In this document: positions 1-64,000 of the stretch, piece after piece
Position numbering within the stretch: the first letter of the stretch is position 1
Layout: the number at the start of each line of letters is the position of its first letter
Source of the DNA: an uncultured Gemmatimonadaceae bacterium
Lineage (GTDB): Bacteria > Gemmatimonadota > Gemmatimonadetes > Gemmatimonadales > Gemmatimonadaceae
Length of the DNA stretch: 64,000 nucleotides
Assembly: GCA_963829055.1 (NCBI GenBank)
Contig: CAWHHI010000016.1
Coordinates: 224,001 to 288,000, forward strand
Direction of reading: 5' to 3'
Notes under the pieces: generated by a model
Databases searched by the model: none
The model's input: only the letters and a program-made list of their open reading frames with translations
Told to the model about the DNA's origin: nothing
Program-made: the position numbers and the translations under genes

Positions 1-866
1 CCTCCGGGCGGCGCGAGAACGTTCCCGCGCGCGCGACGTTGGCGGAGCTCGACCTGACGAGTCCCGCGGCGGCGCAGCTCGTGCGCGACGGCCGTTTCGA
101 TGTCATCTCGCACCTCGCCGCGCAAATCGACGTGCGGAAGAGCGTCGCCGACCCGATGCACGACGCGACGATCAACATCGTCGGCACGCTGAACGTGGTG
201 GAGGCGGTGCGCGCGTCGGGGTACGCGACGCGAATCATTTTCTCGTCCACGGGCGGCGCGCTATACGGCGACTTCGTGACGCCTCCGAACATCGAGGACT
301 ATCCGAAGGATCCCGAATCGCCGTACGGCATCGCGAAGCTGAGCGCGGAGCTCTACCTCGCGTACTACGCGCGCCTGCATCGGATCGACACCGTCGCGCT
401 GCGCTACGCGAATGTGTACGGACCTCGTCAGGATCCGCACGGAGAGGCGGGTGTCGTCGCCATCTTCTGCAATCGTATCCTAACGAGACAACCACTCACC
501 GTGTTCGGCGATGGCTCACAGACGCGCGACTACGTGTTCGTGAAGGACGTCGCACGCGCGAACTTCGCGGCAGCGACACGCGATCTCCCGGCACCCGGAC
601 GGCTCGATGCGCGCGGATTCAACATCGGCACGGGCATCGAGACGTCGGTGATCGAGCTCGCGAACGCACTGCAGAAGAGCGCCAAGTCGGGCGTCCCGAT
701 CAACAATGCTCCAATGCGCCCGGGTGAGCAGCAGCGTTCCGCTGTCAGCATCGAGAAAGCGCAGCGTGTGCTGGGGTGGCAGCCGACAGTCGGGCTCCAC
801 GAGGGGCTCGAGGAAACCTTCGCCTTCTTCGCCGAGCGTTTCGGGCGGGAGCGTCAAACGACGTGA
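1..866 (+). CDS. NAD-dependent epimerase/dehydratase (UDP-glucose 4-epimerase-like), 5' end outside window
   Basis: SSTGGALYG, YGIAK (YxxxK), RYANVYGPRQ and GDGSQTRDYV motifs; frame is open back to the window edge. Confidence 0.85.
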   Translation, partial: SGRRENVPARATLAELDLTSPAAAQLVRDGRFDVISHLAAQIDVRKSVADPMHDATINIVGTLNVVEAVRASGYATRIIFSSTGGALYGDFVTPPNIEDYPKDPESPYGIAKLSAELYLAYYARLHRIDTVALRYANVYGPRQDPHGEAGVVAIFCNRILTRQPLTVFGDGSQTRDYVFVKDVARANFAAATRDLPAPGRLDARGFNIGTGIETSVIELANALQKSAKSGVPINNAPMRPGEQQRSAVSIEKAQRVLGWQPTVGLHEGLEETFAFFAERFGRERQTT

Positions 867-1582
867 TCGCGCCCGGCTACTTCCAGATCGGCAAGGCAAT
901 TCCCACGACCCCGTGGGAGATGGTCACGAACTCGTCGCTCGTGACGCAGATCGTGCTCGGACTGCTGGCGGTGTTATCGCTCCTCAGCTGGGGCGTGATG
1001 TTCGGCAAGTCGGTCGAGTTCCGACGCGTGCGAAAGGCGGCCGACGGGTTCATGCGCAGCTTCGATCGCGCGCAATCGCTCGACGAGGTCGCGACGCTCG
1101 CGAAGCACGCGACGCCAAGCCCGTTCACGCGCGTCTTCGAGCGCGCGGTGCAGTTCCTCACGCAGACGAAGCCCGCGCTCGCGGCGTCGTCGGAGCGCAC
1201 GGCGCGGCTGAGTGGCTCGCAGGTGGAGGCGCTGCGTCTCGTGCTCGATGCGCATACGAACAGTGAGCGCGACTCGCTGTCGCGGTTCATTCCCTGGCTC
1301 GCGACGATCGGGTCGGTCAGCCCGCTCATTGGGCTGCTCGGGACGGTGCTGGGCGTCATTTCGGCCTTCACCGGGATCGCGACACAGGGCTCAGGGAACA
1401 TTGCGGCGGTGGCGCCGGGTATTGGAGAAGCACTGATGGCGACGGCCGCGGCGCTCGCCGTGGCCATTCCCGCGGTGTTCGGGTACAACATCTTCGCGAA
1501 CCGGGTGAACCGGGTCGATAGTGAGCTCGAGGGCTTCGGCTCTGAGCTCATCGCGCTCATGGTTCGCGAAGGGAGGATCTAG
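863..1582 (+). CDS. tolQ: MotA/TolQ/ExbB proton channel protein
   Basis: LATIGSVSPLIGLLGTVLG and APGIGEALMATA motifs; GTG start overlaps upstream stop; first gene of tol-pal order. Confidence 0.9.
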   Translation: MIAPGYFQIGKAIPTTPWEMVTNSSLVTQIVLGLLAVLSLLSWGVMFGKSVEFRRVRKAADGFMRSFDRAQSLDEVATLAKHATPSPFTRVFERAVQFLTQTKPALAASSERTARLSGSQVEALRLVLDAHTNSERDSLSRFIPWLATIGSVSPLIGLLGTVLGVISAFTGIATQGSGNIAAVAPGIGEALMATAAALAVAIPAVFGYNIFANRVNRVDSELEGFGSELIALMVREGRI

Positions 1583-1587
1583 GGTTC

Positions 1588-2001
1588 ATGTCGCGTCGTC
1601 GTCGCGGTGAACGATCGCCGCTCAACGCCGAGATCAACGTGGTCAGCCTCATCGACGTGATGATGCTGCTCATGGTGATCTTCATGATCACCGCGCCGAT
1701 CATGCAGGGCGGTGTCGACGTTCGCCTGCCGACCGCTGATGCGAAGCCACTCGATCCGAAGGGCGGGCTGGTCGTGACGGTCGACAAGGCGGGACAGATC
1801 TTCGTCGATGAATCGCGTATGAGCTTCGATGCATTCCGCGCGTCCTTCAAGGCGCTCGCGGGGCGACGGAGCAGTCAGGGCGTGTATCTCCGCGCCGATG
1901 AAGCCGTGAACTACGGACAGGTCGTGCGCGTGCTTGCGGTGATGCGTCAGGCAGGGGTGGGCGATATCGGGCTCGTGGCGGAGCCGATGGGGGCGAAGTA
2001 G
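1588..2001 (+). CDS. tolR: TolR/ExbD biopolymer transport protein
   Basis: AEINVVSLIDVMMLLMVIFMITAP and LRADEAVNYG motifs. Confidence 0.9.
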   Translation: MSRRRRGERSPLNAEINVVSLIDVMMLLMVIFMITAPIMQGGVDVRLPTADAKPLDPKGGLVVTVDKAGQIFVDESRMSFDAFRASFKALAGRRSSQGVYLRADEAVNYGQVVRVLAVMRQAGVGDIGLVAEPMGAK

Positions 2002-2711: not shown

Positions 2712-4031
2712 TGACTCCACTGCTTCGCGCGGCGCTGCTCGGTGTCGCGCTCACGTTCGCGCCGTTCGTATGCGTTGCAGCGCAGGATTCGCTGCCGCCC
2801 GGCGTGCGTCTCGATCTCCGCTACAATCCCGGCACGAAGCCAGGCGTGCTCGTGTTGCGCGTCGCGGGAACGAACGGGGATTCGATCCGTGCGATCCTGC
2901 AGCGAGACTTCGATAACGGCGATCGCATCAACGTCGTCGCCGCCGAAGAGACGGGATTCCCCGACACGCCGACCGCGGGGAAGAACGGCAACTATCCGGT
3001 GTACGCGAAACTGGGTGCGCTCGCGCTCGTGCAGGCCACGCCCACCGCGAGCGGTTTGCACGTCGCGGTGCACGACGTCGCGCTCCAGAAGGTGGCCGGC
3101 GTTAGGGACTTCGTTCTCTCGGGCGCACCGAACTCGCGCGAGTGGCGCATGTCGGTGCACATGGCCTCCGACGAACTCGAGTCGTGGATCACTGGTGTGC
3201 GCGGCATTGCCGCGACGCGCGTTGCCTACGTGCAGGGTGTGCGCGGCAGCAAGCTGTTCATCGTCGATAGCGACGGTGCGTTTCCGACGCCCGTCGGGGA
3301 CGACGCTGGCGTGCTTTCGCCGGCGTGGCATCCGAAAGGGACGCACATCGCGTATTCGCTGGTCGGCGCGCGCGGATGTTGTCAGATCTTCGTCTACGAT
3401 CTCGCGTCAGGCAGCGCGCGGCAGATTTCCGCGGTCGGCGGCGGCTTGAACGCGACGCCGACGTTCTCGCCCGACGGCGGTGTGATTGTGTACACGCACG
3501 GCGAGGAGTCGGGGACGGACCTCTTCGCGACGACCGTGTTCGACCGCGGACCGGCTCGACGGATCACCGTTGGCCGCGGCTCCGACAACACGAGTCCCAC
3601 GTTCAGTCCCGATGGGCGACGATTGGCGTTCACATCGGGGCGACTTGGCCACCCGGAGGTTTATATTAGCGACGCCGACGGGACAAACGTCCAATGGCTG
3701 ACATCCTACAATACGGGCGATCAGAACTATCGATCGAATCCCGATTGGTCGCCCGACGGTCGATTGATCGCGTATCAGGCGCAGCAGACGGATGGTCGAT
3801 TTCAGTTGAGCACCATCTCGCTCCGTGACAAGAGCGTGAAACAGCTGACGAACGACGGGAGCAACGAAGATGCATCGTGGGCTCCTGACAGTCGTCATCT
3901 CGATTTTCTCGTCTACGCGGACGGGAACCAAGCAGCTCTTCGTCATCGACTCGGAGTCGGGTCGGTGGCGACAATTGACGCGGAACGGGGGTGTGCGTCT
4001 ACCTGCATGGTCGCCCCCGCTGACGCGGTAG
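2711..4031 (+). CDS. tolB: TolB beta-propeller protein (frameshift near 3901)
   Basis: Repeated PD40 motifs (PAWHPKG, PTFSPDG, PDWSPDG). After a one-base shift at ~3901 the frame reads IFSSTRTGTKQLFVID...PAWSPPLTR, stop at 4031. Confidence 0.88.
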
Positions 4032-6369: not shown

Positions 6370-9365
6370 CGCCCGTAGTACGCGCAATCGTTAGGCTGCG
6401 GCGAGGCGCCGCCGCGGGCCTGCTGGCTGCCGCAACGCTCGCCCTTTCCACGCCTGCCGGCGCGCAGGTGCGTCGCGACACGACCACCCGCCGCGATTCG
6501 GTGCGCGCCCCGGGAGACACGATCCGTGCGCCCGGCGATTCGCTCAGGGCGGACAGCACGGCGAAGGTGAAGGTCGAGTGGGCGGAGCCCGACTCCGTGA
6601 TGTCGGAGCTGTTGTCGCGCGAGGGATATACGGCGACAAAATATCAGGGCCAACGCGTCGAGCTTCGCGCGAAGGACCGCACGATAAAGCTCGAGGGCAA
6701 AGCGGCGGTGGGGCGTCCGGACGCCGTGCTCATTGGTGATACCGTCGTCTACAACGACTCGCTCGATATCGTTACGGCGGCCGGCCGGGATACGACACAG
6801 GTCGTGCTGCAGGATCCGACGGGCGCGCAGGACGATATCCGTGCGCGGCGTATCGTCTACGACATCAATGCGCGGCGCGGCAAGGCGTTCGACGTCACGA
6901 CGTCGGTCAATAGTGGGCAGATCTGGGTGGTGCACGGGACGACCACCGCCTTTTCGAACGACAGCTCCGCCGCGAAGCGCAACGCGTTCTACGCGAAAGA
7001 CGGTTGGATCACGAGCTGTACCGACTCGACGCCGCACTACCACTTCGCCGCGAAGGAGATGAAGGTCATCTCCAAGGACGTGATGGTCGCGCGGCCAGCA
7101 GTGCTGTACATCGGGGACGTCCCGGTGTTCTGGCTGCCGTTCGTCTTTCAGGATCTTCGCTCGGGCCGGCGCAGCGGCATCATCCCGCCGCGGTTCGGCA
7201 TCAGCGACATCGTGCGCGGCACCTCGACCTATCGCCGGACCGTCGAGGATCTCGGCTACTACTTCGCGCTCAGCGACTACTACGACGCGCAGGTTGCGGT
7301 CGATTGGCGGAGCGACGCCGGCGCCACGCCCAGCGATCCCGGGTGGGTTCGCTGGAAGGGCAGTATGGACTACCGCTGGCTCGACCGGTTCATGAGTGGC
7401 GGCCTCGACGTGTCGTTCCTGGAGCAGAGCGACGGTCTCAAGAATCGCACCTACTCCTGGAGCCACGACCAGCAGTTCTCGCAGCGCAGTCGCCTAACGA
7501 TGAACCTGAACTACGTGTCGAGCACGACGATCCAGCGGCGCAACACCTTCAATCCGTACAATGCGCTGGCGACGATCGATTCGCGGCTGAACTATCAGCA
7601 GACGGTCGGCGCGTTCCAGCTTGGCATCGGTGGCTCACGCAAGCAGTACCCGGGACGCGATCAGGTCGATCAGGAATTCCCGAGCTTCAACCTCGCCAGC
7701 AAACCGATCAATTTCGGGAAATTGGTGACGTGGACGCCGAGTGTGCAATTGAACAGCCGGCAGTCGTTGCACATCGACCAGACGGGCTCGTTTCTGTACG
7801 CGTACACACCGGCCGCGAGCGGTATCGGCGTCGACAGCGTTCAGGTCGACCGCTCGACACGGCAGACGAGCGCGAGCTTCGACACGCCGATCAAGATCGG
7901 CGGCTTCACGTGGACGAACTCGTTCCGCTACTCGGACAACCTGAACGACTTCCCGTTCACGAAGATCGTCGTCAACCCACGCGACTCATCGAAGAAGCAG
8001 ACTATCACGTACGCACGCGATTTCGCGACGACGGTCGATTGGAGCACGGGCATCAACCTGCCCAGCCTCCTACAGGGAACCTGGAAGGTGACGCCGTCCG
8101 TCAGCTTCGAAAACGTCGACCCGCATCCGTTACTCTACCGGTCGCAATTCTCGAACGGAGAATTCGTCCGCCAGACGAAGCGGGTGCGATACGGCCTTTC
8201 GGCGTCACCCACGTTTTTCGGATTGTTCCCCGGCTTCGGCCCCGTCGAACGTTTTCGTCATTCGATCCAGCCCGTCGTCTCGTACAGCTACGCCGGAAAA
8301 TCAGACGTCAGCGATGCCTATCTCGAGGCGACGAACCAGACACGTCAGGGCTACATCGGGTCATTGGCGCAGAACATCGTGAGCCTAACGCTGGCGACGA
8401 ACATCGAAGCGAAGATGCGCGCGAAGAGCGACACGGTGCGTGACGAGGCGAAGACGCGAGTGAAGCTCCTGTCGCTCACGTTTACGCCGCTGGACTACGA
8501 CTTCCAGCGCGCCAAGGAGACTGGCGGCTCGGGGTTTGTCTCGGAACGGTTCGGTTACTCGGTGCGATCGGACCTGATCCCAGGGCTCGATTTCGGCGTG
8601 GACTACTCCCTCTTCAAGGGAAGCCCACGCACGAGCGACACGGCCGAATTCAACCCCTTCCGCGAGTCGGTGCGCGGTTCGATCACGCTGAACCGGCAGT
8701 CTGGTCTCGTCGGCGCGGTCGCGCGGTTGTTCGGCTACGACATGTCCGCACCGCAGCCGCCGCCAGTTGCAGCCGCGCCCTCACGCGACTCGTCGGAGAA
8801 TCGATCGGTCGCTCGACAGAAGATCGCCGGCAGCGTGAACACGGCGACTCGCATGCAGGAGCAGTTCAGAGGCGGGGGCTCGGGGTGGCAGGTCGATCTC
8901 ACGTACAGTGCACAGCGTTTCCGGCCCGTGGAGGGTGCGATCGTCGTGGACCCGCAGCAGCAGTGCGCCTATCTGCAGAACGTCGATCCGTTCGCGTACG
9001 ACCAGTGCATTCAGAAGTACACGACTACGCCTGGAGTGCAGGACCCGTACGCCCCGACGACAGGCGGCAGCCCGGTCTACCAGAGCCCGCCGACGCGAAA
9101 CATTCAGGCCTCGACGCGATTCAGCATAACGCCGAAATGGGCCATGCAGTGGACCACGAACTACGACTTCATTGCCGCTGAGTTCGGGATGCACACGGTG
9201 TCGCTCCGTCGCGAGATGCACGACTGGGACGCCATCTTCGCGTTCACGCAATCTCCTAACGGGAACTTCGCGTTCAACTTCTTCATCGCGCTGCGTGCCG
9301 AGCCGGATCTGAAGTTCAACTACGATCGGCGGAGCTATGGAAGGGCGCCCGGTTCATTCCAGTAA
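6366..9365 (+). CDS. Putative LPS assembly outer-membrane protein (LptD-like)
   Basis: Signal peptide; ITSCTDSTPHYHF and YIGDVPVFWLPF...RRSGII motifs of LptD; beta-strand-rich C-terminus. Confidence 0.75.
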   Translation: MTPVVRAIVRLRRGAAAGLLAAATLALSTPAGAQVRRDTTTRRDSVRAPGDTIRAPGDSLRADSTAKVKVEWAEPDSVMSELLSREGYTATKYQGQRVELRAKDRTIKLEGKAAVGRPDAVLIGDTVVYNDSLDIVTAAGRDTTQVVLQDPTGAQDDIRARRIVYDINARRGKAFDVTTSVNSGQIWVVHGTTTAFSNDSSAAKRNAFYAKDGWITSCTDSTPHYHFAAKEMKVISKDVMVARPAVLYIGDVPVFWLPFVFQDLRSGRRSGIIPPRFGISDIVRGTSTYRRTVEDLGYYFALSDYYDAQVAVDWRSDAGATPSDPGWVRWKGSMDYRWLDRFMSGGLDVSFLEQSDGLKNRTYSWSHDQQFSQRSRLTMNLNYVSSTTIQRRNTFNPYNALATIDSRLNYQQTVGAFQLGIGGSRKQYPGRDQVDQEFPSFNLASKPINFGKLVTWTPSVQLNSRQSLHIDQTGSFLYAYTPAASGIGVDSVQVDRSTRQTSASFDTPIKIGGFTWTNSFRYSDNLNDFPFTKIVVNPRDSSKKQTITYARDFATTVDWSTGINLPSLLQGTWKVTPSVSFENVDPHPLLYRSQFSNGEFVRQTKRVRYGLSASPTFFGLFPGFGPVERFRHSIQPVVSYSYAGKSDVSDAYLEATNQTRQGYIGSLAQNIVSLTLATNIEAKMRAKSDTVRDEAKTRVKLLSLTFTPLDYDFQRAKETGGSGFVSERFGYSVRSDLIPGLDFGVDYSLFKGSPRTSDTAEFNPFRESVRGSITLNRQSGLVGAVARLFGYDMSAPQPPPVAAAPSRDSSENRSVARQKIAGSVNTATRMQEQFRGGGSGWQVDLTYSAQRFRPVEGAIVVDPQQQCAYLQNVDPFAYDQCIQKYTTTPGVQDPYAPTTGGSPVYQSPPTRNIQASTRFSITPKWAMQWTTNYDFIAAEFGMHTVSLRREMHDWDAIFAFTQSPNGNFAFNFFIALRAEPDLKFNYDRRSYGRAPGSFQ

Positions 9366-11040: not shown

Positions 11041-12782
11041 CCACGCGCAGCGTCGCCCCCCGGGAAACCGCGATTGGCCGCGGCGCACGTCTCGTGACGG
11101 CGCCTCGCGGCAACGCGCTGTCGTGTAAAGGTTGGCAGCAGGAGGCCGCGCTCCGGATGCTGATGAACAATCTCGATCCGGAAGTCGCCGAGCGGCCCGA
11201 CGATCTCGTCGTGTACGGTGGGACGGGCCGCGCCGCGCGCTCGTGGGAAGCATTCGACGCGATTGTCACCGCGCTCCGCCGCCTCGAATCGGACGAGACG
11301 CTGCTGGTGCAGAGCGGGAAACCGGTCGCCGTCTTTCGGACGCACGCTGGTGCACCACGCGTGCTCATCGCCAACAGCAATCTCGTCGGCCGGTGGGCGA
11401 CGTGGGAGAAATTCCGCGAGCTCGAACGCCTCGGGCTGACGATGTATGGCCAGATGACGGCGGGGTCGTGGATCTATATCGGCACGCAGGGAATCCTGCA
11501 GGGCACGTACGAGACCTTCGGCGCCGTTGCACGACGTCACTTCGGAGGGTCGCTCGCCGGTCGCTTCGTGCTGACCGCGGGACTCGGCGGAATGGGCGGC
11601 GCGCAGCCGCTTGCCGCGACGCTCAACGGCGCCGCGTTCCTGGGGCTCGACGTCGAGGAGTCTCGCATCGACAAGCGGCTCGCGACAGGCTACCTCGACC
11701 GCAAGACGCGCGACCTGGACGAGGCACTCGTCTGGATCCGCGACGCCGTCGCGACCGGGCGGGCGCTGTCGGTCGGGCTCGTGGGCAACGCGGCCGATGT
11801 CCTGCCCGAGCTCGTTAGGCGTGGCGTGACGCCTGACGTCCTCACCGACCAGACGAGCGCTCACGACACGCTCAACGGCTACGTGCCGAGCGGCATCGCC
11901 GTGGGTGACGCCGCCGTGCTCCGGCAGGCCGCGCCTGACGAGTACATCGCGCGTGCCATCACATCGATCGTGACCCACGTGCAGGCGATGCTCGAGATGC
12001 AGCGCCGAGGTGCGGTGACGTTCGACTATGGCAACAATATCCGCACGGTGGCGCTCGATGCTGGAGTGCGTGACGCGTTCGACTTTCCCGGGTTCGTTCC
12101 GGAGTACGTCCGCCCGCTGTTCTGCGAGGGGAAGGGGCCGTTCCGGTGGGTTGCGCTCTCGGGCGATCCGGCGGACATCTATCGCACCGACGAATTGGTG
12201 CTCGAGTTGTTCCCTAACGATGCCCATTTGCGGCGATGGATCACGATGGCCCGCGAGAAGGTACATTTTCAGGGATTGCCGGCACGTATCTGCTGGCTGG
12301 GTCAGGGCGATCGTGCGAAGTTCGGGGTGGCCCTGAACGATCTCGTAGCCAAGGGCGAGCTCTCGGCGCCGATCGTGATCGGCCGTGATCACCTCGATAC
12401 CGGGAGCGTGGCGTCGCCATTCCGCGAGACGGAGGCAATGCAGGATGGCAGCGACGCGATCGCCGACTGGCCGATTCTCAACGCGCTGCTCAACGTCGCG
12501 AGCGGAGCGAGTTGGGTGTCGTTCCACCACGGCGGTGGGGTCGGGATCGGGAATTCGCTTCACGCCGGCCAGGTGATCGTGGCTGATGGCTCGGCGGAGA
12601 TGCGCGTGCGACTCGAACGCGTGTTGACGAACGACCCCGGCATCGGCGTTGCGCGCCATGCCGACGCTGGCTACACGAGCGCGATCGAGACCGCGTCGAG
12701 AGAAGGGATTCAGCTCCCAATGGTACCGGCCCAGGGCTCGCCGAGGGGGAACGGCGAGCCTGGGCCGGGTAACAGAACGTGA
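11037..12782 (+). CDS. hutU: Urocanate hydratase
   Basis: [34 protein letters not shown] and HHGGGVG motifs. Confidence 0.97.
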
Positions 12783-12860
12783 TACACGCACTCTCCAACC
12801 GCACGCTCGTTAGGCGAATCTAATCGGTTCCCAGTTCCCGGCTCCCCTTCCTGAGATCTC

Positions 12861-13953: not shown

Positions 13954-15214
13954 GTTGTTCGTCAACGCGTCGCAGGTAGTCACGTGCAGCGGCCCTCCAC
14001 GTGCGCGACGCGGACGTGAGATGGATGACGCCGGGGTTGTGACGGGCGTCTCAGTCGCGGTTGTTGCAGATCGCATCACGGCCGTGGGCCCGACGAAGGA
14101 GCTCGAACGAACGTACGTCGAGGCCAGGCGAGTCGACTGCGGCGGCCGCGTGCTCACTCCTGGGCTGGTCGACTCGCACACGCACGCGATTTTCGGCAAA
14201 CCGCGTTTCGAGGAACAGGAGCTTCGCGCCTCGGGCCTCGATTACATGGAGATCGCCCGTCGGGGTGGGGGAATTCATTCCTCCGTGCGCGATCTCCGTA
14301 GTCGGACCGCAGACGAGCTCCTCGATCTTGCCGTGCCACGACTCCGCCGCCTCGCCGCGCACGGCGTGACGACGGTTGAAGTCAAATCCGGCTATGGGCT
14401 TACGCCGGAGGACGAGCTCAAATCGCTTCACGTCATCCGGCGGCTCGCCGAGCGGCTCCCGATGCGGCTCGTGCCAACATGGCTCGGCGCTCATGAGATT
14501 CCGCTCGAATTCCGCGAACTTCCGGAAGGTCGTTCCGAATATGTTCGCTTGCTCGTCTCAACGATGCTCCCCGGCATCGTGTCGGGGAGGCTCGCCCGTT
14601 TTGCGGATGTATTCTGCGAACCGGGAGTGTTCACGATCGACGAGGCGAGAACGATTCTCACTGCAGCGCGATCCGGCGGCCTGGGGCTCAAGCTTCACGC
14701 CGACGAGTTGCGTCCGTCAGGAGGAGCGGAGCTCGCCGCTGAAATCGGCGCAACATCGGCCGATCACCTCGCCGCCATCTCGGAATCCGGAATCCGCGTG
14801 CTCGCCGCGTCCAACACAGTTGCCACGCTGCTTCCTGGAACCATGCTTTTCCTCGGCAAGGAGAAGCAGGCACCAGCGCGCGCGCTCGTCGATGCCGGAG
14901 CGGCTGTTGCGCTGGCGACGGATTTCAATCCCGGAACGTCGCCGACGACGAACTTTCCGCTCATCATGACGCTTGGCGTGAGTCAGCTGCGCCTAACGGT
15001 GGCCGAAGCGATGATCGCGGCGACAGTCAACGGCGCAGCCGCCCTGTCCCTGGCCGATCAGGTGGGGCAGATCGCACCGGGGTACTCGGCAGATCTGGCG
15101 CTCTTCGACGCGACCGATGTTCGCGAGCTTCCATACTGGTACGGAGATCAACGATGCGTGGGGACCTGGGTTCGGGGCCGTGCTTGTCATCCCTCTACCG
15201 TCGGGACACTTTGA
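13892..15214 (+). CDS. hutI: Imidazolonepropionase (start approximate)
   Basis: PGLVDSHTH, EVKSGYGL, DVFCE, KLHADEL and ATDFNPG motifs. Confidence 0.94.
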   Translation: MEAGDRDAPRRESPVPGPQSLLFVNASQVVTCSGPPRARRGREMDDAGVVTGVSVAVVADRITAVGPTKELERTYVEARRVDCGGRVLTPGLVDSHTHAIFGKPRFEEQELRASGLDYMEIARRGGGIHSSVRDLRSRTADELLDLAVPRLRRLAAHGVTTVEVKSGYGLTPEDELKSLHVIRRLAERLPMRLVPTWLGAHEIPLEFRELPEGRSEYVRLLVSTMLPGIVSGRLARFADVFCEPGVFTIDEARTILTAARSGGLGLKLHADELRPSGGAELAAEIGATSADHLAAISESGIRVLAASNTVATLLPGTMLFLGKEKQAPARALVDAGAAVALATDFNPGTSPTTNFPLIMTLGVSQLRLTVAEAMIAATVNGAAALSLADQVGQIAPGYSADLALFDATDVRELPYWYGDQRCVGTWVRGRACHPSTVGTL

Positions 15215-20119: not shown

Positions 20120-20161
20120 CGTCGTTAGGTGGGGCGGCCATCCCGCCGCCGCGGCGCGTCG

Positions 20162-33827: not shown

Positions 33828-33862
33828 GCGGCGCGCGCTCCGGCGCTGATCTGGCGACCGCG

Positions 33863-42529: not shown

Positions 42530-42544
42530 GTGGTGTCTCGATGC

Positions 42545-46726: not shown

Positions 46727-50397
<3,671 letters not shown>

Positions 50398-50421: not shown

Positions 50422-50751
50422 GTGACGGAGCACCAGCCAGTGTCCGCCTGGCTGCGCGCGCGCACGCCCGTGCCGCCGCCGCAGCTCATTGCGCGCATCG
50501 AGGCGATGACGGCCGGGGTCGCCGGCCGCGATGCCTCCGCCGACGTGTTCCTCGCAGCCGCCGAAGCGGCGATGGGCGGGTTGCTGCGCGACGGGTGCCT
50601 AACGCGCGAGAGCGCGCTCGACCTGCTCGCCATTGACGCCCTCGTCACGTACGCGTTCGAGGCTGCGGCGGATGACCCGGAACGCCTCGAAGACCGCGCG
50701 GCACGCGCGCTGTCACGCGTGTCGGCCCTCGCTGCGCCGTATCCGGCGTGA
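50422..50751 (+). CDS. Hypothetical protein
   Basis: 109-aa ORF filling the gap, stop overlapping next start; RESALDLLAIDALVTYAFE looks like a conserved helix. Confidence 0.65.
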   Translation: MTEHQPVSAWLRARTPVPPPQLIARIEAMTAGVAGRDASADVFLAAAEAAMGGLLRDGCLTRESALDLLAIDALVTYAFEAAADDPERLEDRAARALSRVSALAAPYPA

Positions 50752-51488
50752 GCGTGCGGACGCCGGCTCGGCTCCCATTCGACCGGCGCGGCGGGCTCAT
50801 CGTGCTCGTCGATCCCGGCCGGTCGACGCCGGATGACGCGTTAGGCCTCGCGACCCGAGCGGCGACGTCGGACGCGTGCGGGTTTCTCATCGGCGACAGC
50901 CTCGGGGGCGGCGCGAATCTGGCCGCGCATGTCGCGGCGATGCGCGCGGGTGCACCCGGCTTGCCGATTGTGCAGTTCCCGGCTTCCGCCGCGGAGCTCA
51001 GCGCTGATGTGGACGCCGTGCTGTTTCTCGCGCTGCTGTCAGGAAGAAATCCACGGTACCTCATCGACGAGCAGGTGCGTGCGGTGCCGTTCTTCGTTCG
51101 GCACCCCGAGGTGGCCGCGATCAGTACCGCGTATCTGCTCGTGGAAGGTGGCCGAACGAGCTCGGTGGAGCAGGCGACTCGCACGCAGCCGCTCGCGGCG
51201 GATGCGCCCGACGTAGTTGCTGCACACGTCAGGGCCGCGCAGCTCATGGGCATGTACGCGACGTATCTCGAGGCAGGCAGCGGCGCCGCGAGGCCCGTCT
51301 CGGCACACGTGATCGCGGCCGCTCGCGAGGCGACCGACGGACCGCTGCTCGTCGGAGGCGGCATCACGAGCGCCACCGCGGCGCGGGAAGCGCGCGATGC
51401 GGGCGCCGACTACGTCGTGATCGGGACACTCTTCGAGCGCGTCCCGTCGGTCGCCGTCCAGCCACTCGCCAGCGCCGCCCGCGCGTGA
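50748..51488 (+). CDS. Geranylgeranylglyceryl/heptaprenylglyceryl phosphate synthase family (GGGPS/PcrB)
   Basis: LVDP, FLALLSGRNPRYLI, TAYLLVEGG, YLEAGSGA, VGGGI and GADYVVIGT motifs. Confidence 0.85.
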   Translation: MSVRTPARLPFDRRGGLIVLVDPGRSTPDDALGLATRAATSDACGFLIGDSLGGGANLAAHVAAMRAGAPGLPIVQFPASAAELSADVDAVLFLALLSGRNPRYLIDEQVRAVPFFVRHPEVAAISTAYLLVEGGRTSSVEQATRTQPLAADAPDVVAAHVRAAQLMGMYATYLEAGSGAARPVSAHVIAAAREATDGPLLVGGGITSATAAREARDAGADYVVIGTLFERVPSVAVQPLASAARA

Positions 51489-52282: not shown

Positions 52283-52853
52283 ATGAGAGAGCAGATCGTG
52301 CAGCGCCTTCGCGACCTGGCGGCGACCGCGACCGATGCCGCGGAGCGGATCGGCCCCGACGCGGAGCGGGCGGGTACGATGATGCGCGACGTCGTGCGCC
52401 GCGGCGGGACGCTGTTCTTCTGCGGAAACGGTGGGAGCGCTGCCGACGCGCAGCACATGGCGACGGAGTACGTCGTGCGGTACATGAAGAACCGGCGGCC
52501 GCTGGCGGCTGTTGCGCTCACAACGGACACGTCACTGCTCACGGCGATGGGAAACGACTTCGGGTTCGATGAGATCTTCTCGCGTCAGGTGGACGCGCTC
52601 GTGACCGATCGCGATCTGCTCATCATCCACTCGACGAGTGGCAACTCGCCTAACGTGGTCAAGGCGGCCGAGGCGGCGCGCCGCAAGGGTGCGGGCGTCG
52701 TGGCATTCTCATCGCGCGACGGTGGGGCACTGCGCGCCGATCGCCGATCATTCGGTGATCGTGCCGACGGACCGCACGGACCGCGCACAGGAGATCCACC
52801 TCTGCATCGAGCACGCGATCTGCGAAGTGATCGAAGCGGGGCTCGACTCATGA
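52283..52853 (+). CDS. gmhA: D-sedoheptulose-7-phosphate isomerase (SIS; frameshift near 52737)
   Basis: CGNGGSAADAQH, NDFGFDEIFSRQV, STSGNSPNV, then QEIHLCIEH in a shifted frame. Confidence 0.88.
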
Positions 52854-53603: not shown

Positions 53604-53638
53604 TCGTGTCGCACGGCGCGTTAGGCGCGCCAGGCCTG

Positions 53639-54175: not shown

Positions 54176-55510
54176 GTGGCTACGTTAGCCATTCCGCGCG
54201 CCGTCCGACTCATCGCCGAGCGGCTCGACAACGCAGGGTACGAGACGTGGTGCGTTGGTGGCGCCGTGAGGGACGCCATGCTCGGCCATCCGCACCTCGA
54301 TTGGGATCTCGCGACCGCGGCGACGCCGCAGCAAGTTCAGAAGGTCTTCCGCCGTACGGTCCCGGTCGGTATCGACTTCGGTACGGTTGGCGTGCTGGAC
54401 GATGCCGGGGTCATGCACGAGGTAACGACCTTCCGTCGTGACGTCGACACGGACGGGCGCCACGCGGTGGTCGAGTTCGGCGCGTCGCTCGACGACGACC
54501 TGGCGCGCCGCGACCTCACGATCAACGCGATCGCCGTGTCGCCCAAGACCGGGGAGATCCGTGATCCGTTCGGCGGACAGCTCGATCTCGAGCGTCGGAT
54601 CGTGCGGGCCGTCGGCGCTCCGGACGAGCGTATGCGCGAGGATCGGCTGCGCGCGCTGCGGGCGATCCGGTTCGCGTCGCGTCTCGATTTCTCGATCGAG
54701 CCGACGACGTGGGAGGCGATCGCGCGGAGTGCGCCGCATCTGTCTCGTCTCTCGCGCGAACGCGTCAAGCAGGAGATCGAGAAGACGATGGAGCAGGTGC
54801 GCTGCCCGAGCCGAGCGTTCGCCATGTGGCGATCGAGCGGAGCGCTCGCGTCGCTCGTACCGCCGCTCGCCAACCAGCCCGAGATCGCGTTTGCGGCGGC
54901 GGACCACGTGCCGTTGCCGGGCGCTACGCGGCGGCCGGATCGAGTCGATGCTCGCCGCATCCACCGTTTGCTTTCGCTCTTTCTCGATTTGCCCGCGGCT
55001 ACCGTTCGGTCGGCGTTGCACGACCTGCGGTTCTCGAACGCCGACGTGCGGAACATGTCGAAGCTCGCCGAGCACTGGGTCGGGCTGTTCACTCGCGTAA
55101 CGGACATGCTCGGCCAGGTCGGGCCGCCTGACGACGCCGTCATTCGGCGCTGGGCCGCCACGACCGGGAGGACGCAGCTCGCTGCGTTTCTGCGCCTCGC
55201 GGAAGCCCGGTGGGCCGCCATGCGGGCGGCGGGCGAGCGCGCACCAACGCGCGAGCGCGCGGGAAGCGTGTATCGTCGCGCGCTGCGGATCGCGTATCGC
55301 GATCCGATCGAGCTCGCGGATCTGCAGGTCGATGGGGAGGACCTGCAGCGTGAGGGAATCGCGCGCGGCCCCGCGCTCGGTAAGATTCTACGCGCGCTGC
55401 TGGACTGGGTCGTGGACGATCCAGCGCGCAACACGCGAGAGACGCTCATGGGTCGCGCCGCGCAATTCGCGCGCGACAGCGAGCGCGCACCGAGCGACGC
55501 GCAACGTTAG
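54176..55510 (+). CDS. CCA tRNA nucleotidyltransferase / poly(A) polymerase family
   Basis: VGGAVRD, DWDLAT, EVTTFR, DLARRDLTINA and EDRLRALR motifs. Confidence 0.92.
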   Translation: MATLAIPRAVRLIAERLDNAGYETWCVGGAVRDAMLGHPHLDWDLATAATPQQVQKVFRRTVPVGIDFGTVGVLDDAGVMHEVTTFRRDVDTDGRHAVVEFGASLDDDLARRDLTINAIAVSPKTGEIRDPFGGQLDLERRIVRAVGAPDERMREDRLRALRAIRFASRLDFSIEPTTWEAIARSAPHLSRLSRERVKQEIEKTMEQVRCPSRAFAMWRSSGALASLVPPLANQPEIAFAAADHVPLPGATRRPDRVDARRIHRLLSLFLDLPAATVRSALHDLRFSNADVRNMSKLAEHWVGLFTRVTDMLGQVGPPDDAVIRRWAATTGRTQLAAFLRLAEARWAAMRAAGERAPTRERAGSVYRRALRIAYRDPIELADLQVDGEDLQREGIARGPALGKILRALLDWVVDDPARNTRETLMGRAAQFARDSERAPSDAQR

Positions 55511-55521
55511 GCCAAGCGATC

Positions 55522-56049: not shown

Positions 56050-56764
56050 ACATCGGACCAGTCCTGTTCGCACTCATCGCGGCGTCGGCGAACGTGCTCG
56101 GCGCCGTTGCCGTTACGTCGCGGGCGCGCTGGAGCATGCGAGCGCTCGACGTGATGGTGGCGCTGTCCGCGGGCTTCATGATCGCCGTGTCGCTCGGCGA
56201 ACTGCTGCCGGAATCGATCGAGCGTGGTGGACGCGCCGCGGCGCTGGCCGCGCTCGCCGGCTATCTGCTCGTCCACCTCACGCAGCACACGTTCGCGCGA
56301 CATTTCCACTTCGGCGAGGAGACGCACGAGGTCACGACCTCGGTCAGCGCGTCGGCGCTGGTCGGGTTGTTGCTTCACACGTTCTTCGACGGCGTGGCGA
56401 TCGCGAGCGGATTCGCGGTGAGCCCGTCACTCGGCTTCCTCGTATTCATGGCGATTCTGCTGCACAAGCTTCCTGAAGGACTGGCGATCTCGAGCCTGTT
56501 TCTCGCGGCAGGCGCGGGGCGCCGCGCGGCGCTCGGCGCCGCGACCGCGCTGGGCGTCGCGACCGTGGTCGGGCGTGCTGCTGACGGAATACCTAACGGG
56601 GCTCCGCGACATGGGACTCGCGATCGCCGCGGGCGTGACGCTCTACGTGGCGGCGTCGAACCTCGTTCCGGAGTTTCAGTCGAAGCTCGGGTGGCGCATG
56701 CCCGTCAGCTTCTTCGCTGGGTGCGCGCTGTACTTCGCGGCGCGACATGGTCGCGCTTCCATGA
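56046..56764 (+). CDS. ZIP family metal transporter (frameshifts near 56572 and 56745)
   Basis: HFHFGEETH, HTFFDGVAI, HKLPEG, then LYVAASNLVPE in the next frame. Confidence 0.85.
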
Positions 56765-58257: not shown

Positions 58258-58765
58258 ATGCGTATTCGAAATATCAGTGTCGTCGCGCTTGCGATGATCG
58301 GCGCGGTCGGCTGCGCGACGCTCGGCAAGGCGACGTTCAAGGAGCCGGTCGTGCACTTCCAGGATGCGCGCGATCACCGGGCTCGGCCTCACCGGCGGCT
58401 CGCTCGAAGTGAAGCTGAGCCTCTACAATCCGAACAGCTTCAAGCTCGACGGGACGCGCCTAACGTACAAGCTGATGGTCGACTCGGTGACGTTCGGCAC
58501 CGGCGCTCTCGCGGACCGGTTCACGGTGCAGGAGAAGGACTCGACGATCGTCACGCTGCCGCTCCAGTTCACGTACGCCGGCGTTGGCGCAGCCGGGCGT
58601 CAGCTGATGAACACGGGGGCGGTGAACTATCGCGTCCTCGGCGACGTCACGGTCGGTACGCCGCTCGGCAACTTCACGCGGCCGTACGATCAGACGGGAA
58701 GGTTCTCGCACGCTGAGTGCGGAGAGGCAATTAGCACGCATCAGGGCATGGGAGCAGGCAATTAG
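58258..58765 (+). CDS. LEA type 2 / WHy domain lipoprotein (frameshift near 58368; end uncertain)
   Basis: Lipobox AVGC; LSLYNPNSFKL motif. Confidence 0.78.
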
Positions 58766-60255: not shown

Positions 60256-60271
60256 CGGCACCAGTCTTGCT
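60256..60271 (+). promoter_or_regulatory. Candidate sigma54 (-24/-12) promoter
   Basis: CGGCAC-CAGTC-TTGCT with exact GG-N10-GC spacing, upstream of wecA. Confidence 0.55.
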
Positions 60272-60405
60272 TTTTCGAAGAACCAACAGCAAGCGGCTAA
60301 GGTCATCGAGGCCGGGAGTGGGGCAGAGAAGGTCTGCCCCAGCACCCGTGCCGATCAATTCTGTGCGGGCGCGAGCCATCAGGCGCGTCAGGAGCACCCG
60401 GACTC

Positions 60406-62118
60406 TTGTTGTCGCAGAAGCCTGAGATTCCGCTCTACCTGTTCGGACTCGCCGTCGCCGTCTGTTCGTCCGCGGCTCTGACGTTCGCCGTGCGCGAGTT
60501 CGCGCGCCGCGCGGGGTTGGTCGATCCGATTGGAGACCGGAAGGTCCACGTCAACCCGGTTCCTCGCATCGGCGGCGTCGCCATCGTGCTGGCGGTGGCG
60601 CTGGCCATGACCGCGGTGATGACGTTCTTCGGAGAGCACGTCCTCGCCGAGAACGGGCGAGGGCTCGTGACCGTCATCGGCGGCGCGCTTGCGGTGCATC
60701 TCGTTGGCCTCGTCGATGACGTCCGTCCGATGCGCGCGCGCTGGAAGTTCGTGGCGCAGATCGCGATCGCGTGTGGTGTCTTCATCGCCGGTGTGCGTGT
60801 CTCGACGCTCTCGCTGCCGTTCGTCGGCATCGTGAACCTCGGCGGCATCATCGGGATGCTCTTCACCGTCGTGTGGTTCGTGGGCATCACGAACGCCTTC
60901 AATCTGATCGATGGACTCGATGGGCTCGCGGCAGGTGCGGCGCTGTTCGCGTTGTCCACCATGTTCGTCGTCGCGAGCTACAACGGGCTCGTCGGGCCTG
61001 CGACGGTCACGATCATTCTCGCCGGCGCGACGGTCGGATTCCTCTGCTTCAACTTTCACCCCGCGTCGATCTTTCTCGGTGATTCGGGAAGTCTGTTCCT
61101 CGGCTTCATGCTGGCCGGCATCGGCTTGTTAGGCTCGCAGAAGTCGCCGACGGTGATCGCGGTCGCCATCCCGATCGTGTCGCTCGGGCTCCCGGTGCTC
61201 GATACGACCCTTGCCGTCGCGCGGAGGTTCCTGCGTGGCCAACCCATCTTCAGCGCCGATCGCGCGCACATTCATCACCGCCTGCTGTCGTTAGGGCATT
61301 CACCTCGTCGCGTCGCGCTGCTGCTGTACTCCGCGTGCGCGCTGCTCGGGTTAGGCGGAATGCTGCTCGTGAACGATTCCGCGTACGTGGCCGTGGTGCT
61401 GGTCGTGATCGGCCTCGGTGCCGGACTCGCCGTGCAGCGGTTGCGCTACTACGAGTTCGAGGAGCTCGCTCGTGTGTTGAAGCGTGGGGTGCACCAGCGG
61501 AAGAACATCGGCCGTAACGTTCGCATTCGTGAGGCGAGCCTGCGCGTGTCGGACATGACCGATCTCGATCGCGTGTTCGAAACCCTCGAGACGACGTTCG
61601 AGCAGGACGAATTCGAGTGTGCCGAAGTCCGGCTCCGACATTCGTTCATCGGCGAGGCCCCGGCGACGGACATGTACCGTCGTCTCGACGACGACGTGCC
61701 GGTGTGGGCGTGGCATCGGGCGGACGTCACACTCGCGGCGTGCTGGGAAATCCGGCTGCCGTTCCTCGCGCCGACAGGCGAGCGTATCGGGTCGCTGGTG
61801 CTGTGGCAGGATCGTCGCGGCGACGACGTGAGTCTGGCCGACATGCACGCGATCGCTCATGATCTCCTCACCGCCATCGAGCAGAAGCTGCTCGACTTGT
61901 GGGAGCCGTGGTCCGAGGCGTCCGAAGCCGCCGTCGCGGTCGCGGGTGATCGTTCGGTGTCGGGTGACCGCGGTGTTGGCATCCCGCGCTCCGTCGAACG
62001 GACGGCGCTCGCGATCGAGAAGGACCGAGCGGGTGGCGCGAAAGGGGAGAACGGCGGCACGCGCTCGCCCCACACGGCGTCGGGCGGGTTCAAGCTGCGG
62101 TCCGCTCCGCTCCCGTAA
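60406..62118 (+). CDS. WecA/MraY-family undecaprenyl-phosphate HexNAc-1-P transferase with C-terminal extension
   Basis: RKVHVNPVPRIGG, GLVDD, NAFNLIDGLDGL, FLGDSGS and DRAHIHHRL motifs. Confidence 0.9.
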   Translation: MLSQKPEIPLYLFGLAVAVCSSAALTFAVREFARRAGLVDPIGDRKVHVNPVPRIGGVAIVLAVALAMTAVMTFFGEHVLAENGRGLVTVIGGALAVHLVGLVDDVRPMRARWKFVAQIAIACGVFIAGVRVSTLSLPFVGIVNLGGIIGMLFTVVWFVGITNAFNLIDGLDGLAAGAALFALSTMFVVASYNGLVGPATVTIILAGATVGFLCFNFHPASIFLGDSGSLFLGFMLAGIGLLGSQKSPTVIAVAIPIVSLGLPVLDTTLAVARRFLRGQPIFSADRAHIHHRLLSLGHSPRRVALLLYSACALLGLGGMLLVNDSAYVAVVLVVIGLGAGLAVQRLRYYEFEELARVLKRGVHQRKNIGRNVRIREASLRVSDMTDLDRVFETLETTFEQDEFECAEVRLRHSFIGEAPATDMYRRLDDDVPVWAWHRADVTLAACWEIRLPFLAPTGERIGSLVLWQDRRGDDVSLADMHAIAHDLLTAIEQKLLDLWEPWSEASEAAVAVAGDRSVSGDRGVGIPRSVERTALAIEKDRAGGAKGENGGTRSPHTASGGFKLRSAPLP

Positions 62119-62128
62119 CGCGTCCTCT

Positions 62129-63171
62129 GTGCGCCCCCCGACGCAAGGCCCCGGCCAGGCGGGACCGCGTCGTCACGACGCCGTTACGGGACTCGTGTCC
62201 GTCGTCGTGCCGGCATTCAACGCGGAACAATGGATCGCGGACACATTGCGCAGCATTCGCTCACAGTCCTACCGTACCCTCGAGATCATCGTCGCCGACG
62301 ACGGGTCGACGGACACGACGGCGCAGATCGCAGCGGCATCCGGCGCGATCGTCGTGCCGAGGTGGTGGAACCGGGCCGGGTGGCGCGCGAAATACGGGCA
62401 TGGCCGAAGCTCGCGGCGAGTTCATCCAGTTTCTCGATGCGGACGACCTCCTGGCGCCCGCGAAGATCGCGCGCCAGGTCGCGGTGCTGATGGAATCGGG
62501 CAGTGACGTCGCCTGGGAGCCCTTCAACATGCTCATCCCCGGTGCGGCGCCTAACGCGCCGTTCATCGTCGGTCGCGCGCGTGTCGCCAGACCTCGGCGC
62601 CGACCTCGCAGCATCACTCCTCACGACGCGCGGCTTCACGCAGATCGGCGCGCTCCTGGTCCGGCGTTCCGAGCGCACCGACGCGACGTGGTTCGAGGCC
62701 GGCCGCGAGGTCGTCGAGGACGTGCGGTACATGGTGGCACTCGCGCTGGCTGGTGCGCGTTTCGTGTCGAGTGAATCCGACGAGCTGGGCTTGCTCTACC
62801 GTCAGCACACCGGCCCGCGATACTCGGCGCGTCCGACCGCGTCGTTCGCGCGAGGGTGCGCGCTGAACGCCGAATGGGCGGAGGACTACTGGATGGCACA
62901 CGGCGGACTGACGCCCGCACGCCGTGCCGCACTGTGCGAGGCGTATGCTTTCGCCGCTCGGCAACTCGCGCCAGAGGATCCGGTCGCGTTCCAACGGGCC
63001 GCAAGCCGCGGCCTCGCGTTCGGTGACGAGTTCACGAGGCAGCTGCCCGCGCGCGTGCGCTGGTTGTCGCGCCTGGTTGGCTACCCGCGCGCGGAATCGA
63101 TCGCGTCCACGTGGCGCCGAGTGCGGCACGACCGACGTAACGACGTCGCCGAGCCGAGGGATGCCCAGTGA
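62129..63171 (+). CDS. GT2 glycosyltransferase (frameshifts near 62360-62395 and 62588)
   Basis: VSVVVPAFN, DDGSTD and FLDADD in successive frames. Confidence 0.82.
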
Positions 63172-64000
63172 GAATCGTCCACGTCCCGTTCGGATACTAC
63201 CCCAATGTCGTGGGGGGCACCGAGGTCTACGTCGCCGAGTTGGCGCGCGGCCTCCGGTCGCGCGGCGTCGAAAGCGTAGTCGCGGCGCCGGCCACCCGCG
63301 CAGGCAACGAACGGTACGCGCACGATGGTGTTCCCGTGCGGCGGTTCACCGTGGACCAGAGCGCGAACGTCGGGGACGTCTACGGCGAAGGTGACGCCGT
63401 TGCCGCGGAGGCCATCGGCGGCATCCTCGATGACGTCCGAGCCGACATCCTGCACCTGCACGCCTTCACACGCGCGGCGTCGCTTCGTGCCGCGCGCGTG
63501 GCGCGACGCCAGGGGGTCGCCGTGGTGTTCACGTATCACACCCCGACCGCGAGCTGCGTGCGCGGCACACTCCTGCACGACGGACACGAGCCCTGCGACG
63601 GCTCGCTCATCGCACAGCAATGCACGGCGTGCCTGCTGGAGAGCCGAGGAGTGCCTCTCGCCGTTCGCGAAGCGCTGTCGCGCGTACCGGCACCGTTAGG
63701 CGCCACCGTCGGATCTACGGGCGTGTCAGGGCGGTGGGCGACGGCGCTACGTGCTCGCGAGCTCACCACGGCGAGACACGACGCGTTCCGGCAACTGCTG
63801 CGGGAAGCGGACGCCGTCGTCGCGGTATGCGAGTGGGTGCGCAGCCTACTCATCCGCGCTGGTGCCATGCCGTCACGCTTGATAGTGTCGAGGCAGGGAA
63901 CTCCGCATCGGCCGCTGCCTGCGCGCGACCCACGTGCCGTCGGAGGGCCGCTCCGACTCGCATTCGTTGGGCGTCTTCATCCCGCGAAAGGCGTGCACGT
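63168..64000 (+). CDS. GT4 glycosyltransferase, runs off window end
   Basis: GTG start overlapping upstream stop; MRIVHVPFGYYPNVVGGTEVYV, RPDILHLH, FVGRLHPAKG. Confidence 0.82.
   Translation, partial: MRIVHVPFGYYPNVVGGTEVYVAELARGLRSRGVESVVAAPATRAGNERYAHDGVPVRRFTVDQSANVGDVYGEGDAVAAEAIGGILDDVRADILHLHAFTRAASLRAARVARRQGVAVVFTYHTPTASCVRGTLLHDGHEPCDGSLIAQQCTACLLESRGVPLAVREALSRVPAPLGATVGSTGVSGRWATALRARELTTARHDAFRQLLREADAVVAVCEWVRSLLIRAGAMPSRLIVSRQGTPHRPLPARDPRAVGGPLRLAFVGRLHPAKGVH

Follow-up and report, generated by a model that had tools for sequence, protein, structure and literature searches.

A short asymmetric DNA word, (G/A)CCTAAC(G), highly repeated in Gemmatimonadaceae genomes and possibly a self tag of the uptake-sequence type

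In a 64-kb stretch from the genome of an uncultured Gemmatimonadaceae bacterium (genome G000; the stretch, G000:C16:224001-288000, is referred to as the window), the non-palindromic heptamer CCTAACG, or CGTTAGG on the opposite strand, recurs in one core gene after another. The word, best written as (G/A)CCTAAC(G), is spread over the whole genome and constitutes a signal at the DNA level, one that prevails over codon preference. It is neither a protein motif, nor the remnant of a mobile element, nor a compositional effect. On the basis of comparative sequence analysis, we tentatively read it as a self tag resembling the DNA uptake sequences (DUS) of Neisseriaceae and the uptake signal sequences (USS) of Pasteurellaceae, sustained by a bias in DNA uptake or recombination; we place this interpretation a little below an even chance.

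An exact-word search of the window revealed 42 copies of CCTAACG (+ strand 25, - strand 17). In 100 dinucleotide-preserving shuffles of the window (65–68% G+C), the expectation is 2.88 copies (standard deviation 1.63, maximum 8), and none of the 100 shuffles reaches 42. A preliminary description of this stretch, made by eye, had reported about 40 copies. All 40 of its coordinates are correct, and the search adds two copies that it had missed, at 3100 (-) and 12213 (+); its chance expectation of about seven copies was overgenerous, as shuffling gives about three. The same description held that three quarters of the copies extend to GCCTAACG, which is close to the 29 of 42 (69%) that we find, and its estimates of about seven copies of CCTAACA or CCTAACC and about eight of CATAACG match our counts of 7 (4 and 3, respectively) and 9.

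Its further claim of a genome-wide signal holds as well. G000 (7.78 Mb in 20 contigs, 66–67% G+C; 85.9% complete, with 4% contamination) contains 6,391 copies of CCTAACG (3,154 + 3,237), or 0.82 per kb. The extended form GCCTAACG occurs 5,004 times and is the top over-represented 8-mer under Markov models of order 1, 2 and 3 (38x, 49x and 19x, respectively). When the motif is masked, an order-3 model expects 19 copies, an excess of about 260x. A ranking by the maximal-order Markov model misses the 7-mer and gave way to the lower-order and masked models; the maximal-order model is blind to the word because nearly all occurrences of its 5- and 6-mer sub-words are themselves motif copies. Around 80% of the CTAA tetramers in the genome belong to the word (7,103 CCTAAC among 8,933 CTAA). 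In the sequence logo, position 1 is mostly G (0.75; A 0.13, C 0.09), an invariant-looking CCTAAC follows, and the last position is G (0.87) or A (0.07). We detected no conservation in the flanks, with at most 0.10 bits outside the 8-mer and no information beyond logo positions -2 to +5, and the word lacks the conserved sequence past the core that marks dispersed repeats such as repetitive extragenic palindromes or miniature inverted-repeat transposable elements (REP/MITE).

Most copies are found in coding sequence. Our own crude caller, which predicts 7,243 genes over 78% of G000 and underestimates coding sequence owing to assembly frameshifts, places 4,754 copies within genes and the remaining 1,637 beyond them. 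The word occurs in every stop-free frame, namely xCG-TTA-GG (1,600), CCT-AAC-G (1,269), C-CTA-ACG (830) and C-GTT-AGG (564), and the word itself forms 491 gene ends (TAA 263, TAG 228). In 4,211 well-scored genes we observed 3,640 copies, against 289 after synonymous shuffling within genes, 162 after shuffling of codon order and 170 after resampling from non-motif codon usage. The within-gene excess is thus 12–21x over codon-aware nulls, of which the synonymous shuffle is conservative, since it retains the rare codons contributed by the word itself. The word accounts for 57% of TTA codons and 20% of CTA codons in the genes of G000; it distorts codon statistics to the extent that the majority of TTA codons owe their existence to it alone.

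The preliminary description had noted the word on both strands without polarity, and the genome-wide comparison with GC skew agrees. Copies on the two strands number 526 and 570 in bins of positive GC skew and 839 and 814 in bins of negative skew, with no meaningful replication polarity beyond a weak bin-level rho of -0.17. Neither a link to gene orientation (rho -0.02) nor significant heterogeneity across 145 bins of 50 kb was found. Neighbouring copies are randomly oriented relative to each other (1,774, 1,889, 1,710 and 1,710 pairs). Meanwhile, the word is spaced more evenly than chance. Relative to an exponential distribution, short gaps are depleted (0.28 below 25 bp, 0.30 at 25–50 bp, 0.40 at 50–100 bp and 0.59 at 100–200 bp), and gaps of 400–1,600 bp are in excess (1.24–1.28).

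At the other extreme, eight gaps exceed 9 kb in G000, where 1.8 are expected. The two longest stretches free of CCTAAC are C6:6854-55038 (48 kb), which opens with a D5_N/RFX primase-like gene, and C11:7377-44055 (37 kb). We had expected prophages or plasmids at such places; the content of both is instead mostly housekeeping-type genes, many of them truncated and including a second ftsK. Either an integrated element or, given the 4% contamination, a chimeric join with DNA of a motif-poor Gemmatimonadaceae relative could account for these stretches.

In order to follow the evolution of individual sites, we compared G000 with its congener G001 over 348 kb of alignment at 78.5% identity. Identical in the partner are 122 of 208 G000 sites (59%) and 122 of 202 G001 sites (60%), compared with 23–24% of all 7-mers and 25% of 7-mers of the same composition. 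The positional conservation in orthologues of congeners that the preliminary description had named as a check is therefore present, and the same pattern is seen over four congeners in a 20-kb sample of the window. Where a site is not conserved, the partner is one step away in 20 of 86 cases, versus 44% of non-identical control windows. Most such sites differ at two or more bases, and the usual alternatives, CCGAGCG and CCTGACG, are preferred-codon spellings. In well-called genes, an amino-acid difference accompanies 34 of the 58 sites that were gained or lost, versus 45% of differing control windows, which means that the word is not limited to silent positions.

Across genera, little is shared. 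Between G000 and G014, at 71% identity, 12 sites coincide (12 of 47 in G000, 12 of 127 in G014), with controls at 13%. The high density is thus not inherited site by site; the word must be produced and maintained in each lineage by a process that is active now or was until recently. Copies arise by point substitution within ordinary conserved genes, not by insertion, and the word accumulates independently at different positions in different genera. The logo is the same in G001 and in G014, the latter with 2.0 CCTAAC per kb.

We further surveyed 301 Gemmatimonadaceae genomes from 68 genera, each at least 80% complete; the tally was made by hand, kin are not independent, and the motif-poor counts include the unpublished genomes G013, G053, G099, G246, G261 and G283, on which nothing else in this account is based. 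The distribution of GCCTAACG is bimodal. At least 1,000 copies occur in 62 of the 301 genomes, belonging to 15 of the 68 genera (g1, g9, g16, g36, g44, g47, g48, g55, g56, g62, g69, g73, g74, g77 and g80), with a maximum of 7,821 copies in 6.1 Mb. Most of the remaining genomes have fewer than 70 copies, under the reversed-word control, and a minority are intermediate at 2–5x the control. Close relatives of similar G+C have almost no copies. The genus g56 is itself divided, with 3,244–4,141 copies in six species and 4–66 in four; the halves are two well-separated subclades with 57–59% identity in a Type IIG-like protein discussed below. In a phylum survey of 201 genomes, which includes the unpublished and low-count G013, G356, G383 and G452, enrichment outside the family is found only in the sister-family genus g104 (up to 1,061 copies), with modest cases in genera g26 and g28 of a third family.

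The preliminary description had named an assembly artefact as what would refute the signal. The word is found in related, independently assembled genomes and also in public-run contigs from 15 studies. In this comparison, made on contigs with 24 runs listed, 14 of the 24 hold at least half of the sampled words of a 10-kb test stretch, and 20 runs from the 15 studies (soil, rhizosphere and sediment) contain that stretch or part of it. A 20-kb stretch is covered by contigs of four runs from different studies at 90–99+% likeness. Among the 40 listed of 816 contig differences, none falls within a motif copy, a number too small to test conservation. As to the quality of the G000 assembly, we notice that alaS (window 47576-50397) is split over three overlapping reading frames. 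Methyltransferase genes are broken up in a like manner, and taken together these cases indicate indel errors in the assembly, which account for the low coding fraction of our gene calls.

A bare word at about one copy per kb, on both strands and all-or-none among relatives, shows a set of properties typical of DUS and now also of HIP1, and it is for this reason that we chose the self-tag reading. We infer a maintaining process that would act in the manner of the molecular drive which sustains uptake sequences in Neisseriaceae and Pasteurellaceae. A putative reader in the natural-transformation route (type IV pilus, ComEA, ComEC, RecA) would prefer word-bearing fragments; word-bearing alleles would then be imported and recombined more often and spread in the population, and lineages without the reader would hold the word at or below chance level. 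We speculate that the same reader may favour the import of gene cassettes, the word being the inverse core of the integron attC site. G000 possesses the hardware of transformation: PilQ/M/N/O, pilins, ComEC, a ComEA-type HHH domain, and RecA, encoded in the window. Its pilus cluster is full (PilQ/P?/O/N/M and pilins, P being assigned with doubt), and three orphan pilins exist besides. Among the mechanisms that the preliminary description gave as examples, the uptake tag fits best, while the methyltransferase reading is weakened by the distribution of methyltransferase genes.

Several observations weigh against the self-tag reading. DUS and USS are 9–12 bp long, and a word of 7–8 bp is shorter. 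Uptake sequences carry more near-matches; here, one-off variants at the six core positions are at about 1.5x overall, near expectation, with GCATAACG as the exception (583 copies, 11x). Terminator-like inverted pairs show no excess genome-wide, '+ then -' pairs at 50–150 bp numbering 70 versus 60–82 for the other three orientations. Neisseriaceae carry variant DUS dialects across related lineages; in the genomes surveyed here, one exact word is present or absent, without dialects, and no alternative 'dialect' word was found in five motif-poor genera, in samples of 80 kb per genome that miss words rarer than about 0.1 per kb. A plain uptake model leaves the word's exact agreement with the integron core unexplained. 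Components of the transformation route are equally present in motif-poor genomes, with ComEC in 40 of 41 genomes and the ComEA-type HHH_3 protein and PilM each in 45 of 45. The DUS receptor in Neisseria is a ComP-type minor pilin; among two orphan pilins and two unannotated proteins of the pilus cluster, none separates the motif-rich from the motif-poor half of g56, as each of these four either has relatives on both sides of the split or lacks a full-length relative in the genus. Finally, no reader protein was found among the candidates tested by co-distribution.

The candidates rejected in this way are the integron integrase, ComEC, the ComEA-type HHH_3 protein, PilM, RecC, the Type IIG-like protein, the D12 methyltransferase, VirB4 (in five genomes) and the four pilus proteins; the compared genomes are 70–100% complete, so that single absences prove little. 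The reader may be a small or fast-evolving protein, or the difference may lie in an allele. We also notice a Tex-like protein (about 800 aa, with HHH_3) that within g56 was seen only in the four motif-poor species, though it is present in motif-rich genomes of other genera.

Among other explanations, a methyltransferase could mark CCTAAC, with methylation-dependent transformation, repair or self-recognition keeping the word abundant, as has been considered for the highly iterated palindrome HIP1; we grant this a small but appreciable probability. Type IIG/MmeI-class enzymes read asymmetric 6–7-bp words, and a Type IIG-like protein of about 1,060 aa (Eco57I / MmeI_Mtase / N6_Mtase; best PADLOC match REase_MTase_IIG) is single-copy in 43 of 44 family genomes. 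HIP1 (GCGATCGC) is reported to enhance transformation in a way that depends on methylation, and a case has recently been made for it as an uptake signal, according to the available part of one source (PMC13756078). However, motif-poor genomes carry the Type IIG-like gene no less than motif-rich ones do, the tree of the protein is ordered by genus, and 0 columns of its alignment tell motif-rich rows from motif-poor ones (row G308 is a wrongly picked open reading frame (ORF) and is to be ignored). Methyltransferases of PF01555, PF02384 and PF00145 have no match in G000 (86% complete), and the D12-class methyltransferase occurs in 9 of 25 motif-rich versus 14 of 20 motif-poor genomes.

The Type IIG-like gene deserves a remark of its own, as single-copy, genus-following conservation is unusual for a restriction-modification gene. 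In G000 (G000:C8:73551-78414) it lies in several frames and runs into a SNF2-helicase ORF, and an intact orthologue is found in G001 (L114:16140-19322). We rejected the reading of the multi-frame Type IIG-like and D12 genes of G000 as pseudogenes and take the breaks as assembly indels, because alaS is split likewise.

We consider it unlikely that the word is the site of a chromosome-maintenance protein, either nucleoid-associated or a Chi-like 'self' signal for a helicase-nuclease, under selection in cis. Even spacing, strand balance, site conservation and the two motif-free stretches would follow from such a role too, and random two-ended breaks would need both orientations equally. Chi and the FtsK-orienting or architecture-imparting sequences (KOPS/AIMS) are over-represented 5–8-mers, strongly skewed to the leading strand and only few-fold enriched. 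The word, in contrast, has no replication-linked polarity, and its excess of 50- to 260-fold is far above that of Chi. A search that did not extend to AddAB/AdnAB detected RecC in just 4 of 45 genomes, one of them motif-rich and three motif-poor, and near-complete turnover of sites between genera would be odd for a local function.

The coincidence with integron sites, which the preliminary description did not mention, bears on two further explanations. In the available part of one source, the attC consensus is given as an inverse core RYYYAAC and a core GTTRRRY (PMC3053210); GCCTAAC / GTTAGGC fits both. By our own arithmetic, a random 8-mer matches RYYYAACN on either strand with a prior of about 0.2%, a low value for which the integron identity deserves attention. 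In motif-poor genomes of a sister family, the few copies of GCCTAACG cluster on one strand, 500–600 bp apart. These clusters are canonical attC sites, each with a GCCTAAC inverse core, an imperfect palindrome of about 80 bp and a terminal GTTAGGC, and GCCTAACG is the first 8 bases of the attC sites in these cassette arrays. G000 itself harbours a chromosomal integron at C20:200430-208958. Its intI (C20:208041-208958) scores 265.7 bits against a cut-off of 265, an attI-like inverted pair lies at 207951/207972, and the adjoining array (C20:200430-207189) contains about nine same-strand attC-type sites starting with (G/A)CCTAACG. Paired cores, a palindrome and a same-orientation array near intI are true only for this array, and the other copies are without them. 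Integron integrases are very common in the order, IntI being above cut-off in 24 of 41 relatives.

One way of joining these facts with the self-tag reading is that the word is the tag of a DNA-import or self-recognition system that became locked onto the universal integron core GCCTAAC/GTTAGGC, which we regard as distinctly unlikely. Natural transformation is described as feeding single-stranded cassettes to chromosomal integrons in Vibrio (PMC12614218, available part). If such a tag were real, soil bacteria would preferentially import conspecific DNA together with free integron cassettes; the reading of an invariant attC core would explain why no dialect drift is seen over at least 15 genera, and a sequence-specific filter of uptake matched to attC would connect transformation with integrons in a new way.

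The other explanation takes the word as an integron-related signal, that is, a double-stranded attC/attI R-box read by the integrase or a relative, for example at secondary recombination sites. This we hold to be very improbable, even though the spelling fits the consensus (PMC3053210, available part) at so low a chance prior, the attC sites of the sister family and of G000's own array start with GCCTAACG, and the position-1 preference of G > A >> C, T agrees with the 'R' of the consensus. IntI shows no co-distribution with the word: it exceeds the cut-off in 15 of the 25 motif-rich genomes and in 14 of the 20 motif-poor ones. The bulk of the copies have no palindrome or partner site and arose by substitution in conserved genes rather than by insertion. 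The other cores allowed by the consensus, represented by the Y-degenerate GTCTAACG, GCTTAACG and GCCCAACG, are not enriched in G000 (1.0x, 2.3x and 0.65x, respectively), and thousands of integrase targets in genes would be harmful.

The idea that the word has no function and results from composition, codon usage, a repeated element, or assembly or polishing artefacts could appeal to the maximal-order Markov model, whose failure is explained by motif-dominated sub-words, and to the indel errors of the G000 assembly (alaS in 3 frames), but it is refuted by the 12–21x excess over codon-aware nulls, the excess of about 260x over the masked model and the family survey, in which 62 of 301 independently assembled genomes are rich and close relatives of like G+C have almost no copies, and the lack of conserved flanks and the coverage of the stretch by contigs of four unrelated public runs also speak against it. 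The remaining probability belongs to mechanisms that we have not thought of.

We now describe the individual copies in the window, with coordinates from the exact-word search, gene names mostly from Pfam and frames from our own gene calls; a copy reads GCCTAACG where no other spelling is given. The core functions encoded here according to Pfam are tolQ/exbD/tonB, pal, tatC, lptD, hutH, hutU, surA, aroQ, accB and accC, together with a pilT-like ATPase gene, ftsK, recA, alaS, cca, rarA and hflX. The CTA-ACG frame is used by 11 copies. On the + strand, these are 479..485 (TCCTAACG; Leu-Thr in an epimerase/dehydratase gene), 7493..7499 and 8384..8390 (both lptD), 14992..14998 (amidohydrolase), 17239..17245 (TPR gene), 24804..24810 (ACCTAACG; aroQ, identical in 3 of 4 congeners), 48142..48148 (CCCTAACG; alaS), 50598..50604 and 62550..62556 (each in an unknown gene) and 58459..58465 (LEA_2 gene). 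On the - strand, the copy at 34916..34922 is in an unknown gene. Nine copies are read as TTA-GG. Of these, 30288..30294 and 31224..31230 (ftsK, identical in 3 of 4 and 4 of 4 congeners, respectively), 50348..50354 (alaS), 50839..50845 (pcrB-like) and 61289..61295 (CCCTAACG; glycosyl transferase 4) are on the - strand, and 36053..36059 (UDP-GlcNAc 2-epimerase), 37473..37479 (rmlD-like), 40684..40690 (asnB) and 41841..41847 (ACCTAACG; small-molecule methyltransferase gene) are on the + strand. The frame table thus bears out the earlier remark that the word imposes rare CTA/TTA Leu codons in ftsK, alaS and aroQ, genes whose names rest on Pfam.

The CCT-AAC frame is assigned to nine copies in the same table. 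It is used on the + strand at 9255..9261 (TCCTAACG; lptD), 12213..12219 (CCCTAACG; hutU, one of the two copies added by the search), 16152..16158 and 24056..24062 (each in a TPR gene), 32315..32321 (ftsK; GCCGAACG in 2 of 4 congeners), 52649..52655 (SIS-domain gene) and 56592..56598 (ACCTAACG; zip/rarA region), and on the - strand at 39560..39566 (ACCTAACG; asnB). For the copy at 49875..49881 (+) in alaS, the frame is uncertain, as the gene is split by assembly indels. The GTT-AGG frame is used four times, at 3100..3106 (-, CCCTAACG; tolB-like gene, the other added copy), 6389..6395 (-, lptD), 11813..11819 (-, hutU) and 38326..38332 (+, CCCTAACG; glycosyltransferase). Five copies provide a stop codon. 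TAG is formed for the TPR gene 15270-16718 (16713..16719, -), the ABC Wzt gene (42544..42550, +) and cca (55505..55511, -), and TAA for the surA-like gene (20160..20166, -, ACCTAACG) and the unknown gene 33863-35149 (33861..33867, -). Four copies, all on the - strand, lie outside called genes: 12808..12814 in the interval between hutU and a radical-SAM gene, 20123..20129 (ACCTAACG; intergenic), and 53619..53625 and 63694..63700 (both intergenic or uncalled).

Two other features of the window are worth recording. The pilT/T2SSE-type ATPase gene (26567-27739) is flanked by accB and accC. The ftsK linker contains a short tandem of the heptamer GGGAATC (30487-30524, about 4–5 units), which has 30–45-bp matches at dozens of sites per congener genome, some in longer runs with a 21-bp period. 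AATCGGGAA is about 2x over-represented across G000, and the tandem is a second, microsatellite-like dispersed element of the genus.

Literature searches gave no description of the word, or of any uptake-like sequence in Gemmatimonadota, within a coverage that leaves out most subscription journals, and searches by sequence string returned only primer and telomere papers; the preliminary description had likewise known of none for this lineage. To our knowledge, self-recognition of DNA by a sequence tag is established for no more than two families, both proteobacterial, and HIP1 in cyanobacteria has become a suspected case. A very clean third example of a self tag, in an abundant and barely cultured soil phylum, would make the phenomenon more general. 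The split within g56, with about 3,800 versus fewer than 70 copies, would be a natural experiment, in which comparative genomics should be able to find the reader gene. From the identity with the integron core comes the idea of a possible coupling between DNA uptake and the capture of cassettes. As a practical tool, the word serves as a sharp marker, both in binning and in spotting stretches that differ in origin within Gemmatimonadaceae genomes.

Among known systems, Chi and KOPS/AIMS share with the word that they are over-represented short words of the core genome. The word differs from them in being strand-balanced and 50–260-fold enriched, and RecC is almost absent from the family. The inverse core of the attC site is identical to the word in spelling, and GCCTAACG opens the attC sites of the order's arrays, including G000's own. 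However, attC sites are imperfect palindromes of 57–141 bp with a paired core, in a single orientation and downstream of cassettes, whereas more than 99% of the word copies are isolated 8-mers within core genes, on both strands and uncorrelated with intI. HIP1, in the available part of PMC13756078, is likewise a hyper-abundant octamer with quasi-regular spacing, conserved sites, a patchy distribution at phylum or family level and a suspected role in transformation. It is palindromic, has two known cognate methylases and is reported to correlate with type IV secretion systems (T4SS) (PMC13756078, same part), whereas our word is asymmetric, no methyltransferase tracks it, and VirB4 is found in 0 of 5 g56 genomes.

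The closest comparison is with the DUS of Neisseriaceae and the USS of Pasteurellaceae, jointly named 'DUES' in the available parts of the literature (PMC1939737; also PMC3458573, PMC2346458). The word departs from them in its shorter length, its lack of dialects and of terminator-like inverted pairs, its barely enriched near-matches and its occurrence in another phylum, Gemmatimonadota, and from the DUS of Neisseria in that no ComP-like receptor was found among the four pilin and pilus-cluster proteins tested. What it has in common with both is that it is a short non-palindromic word at about one copy per kb, equal on the two strands and placed in several gene frames against codon habit. Like them, it is evenly spaced, common to related species, missing from two long stretches, and carried by hosts with a pilus and ComEC.

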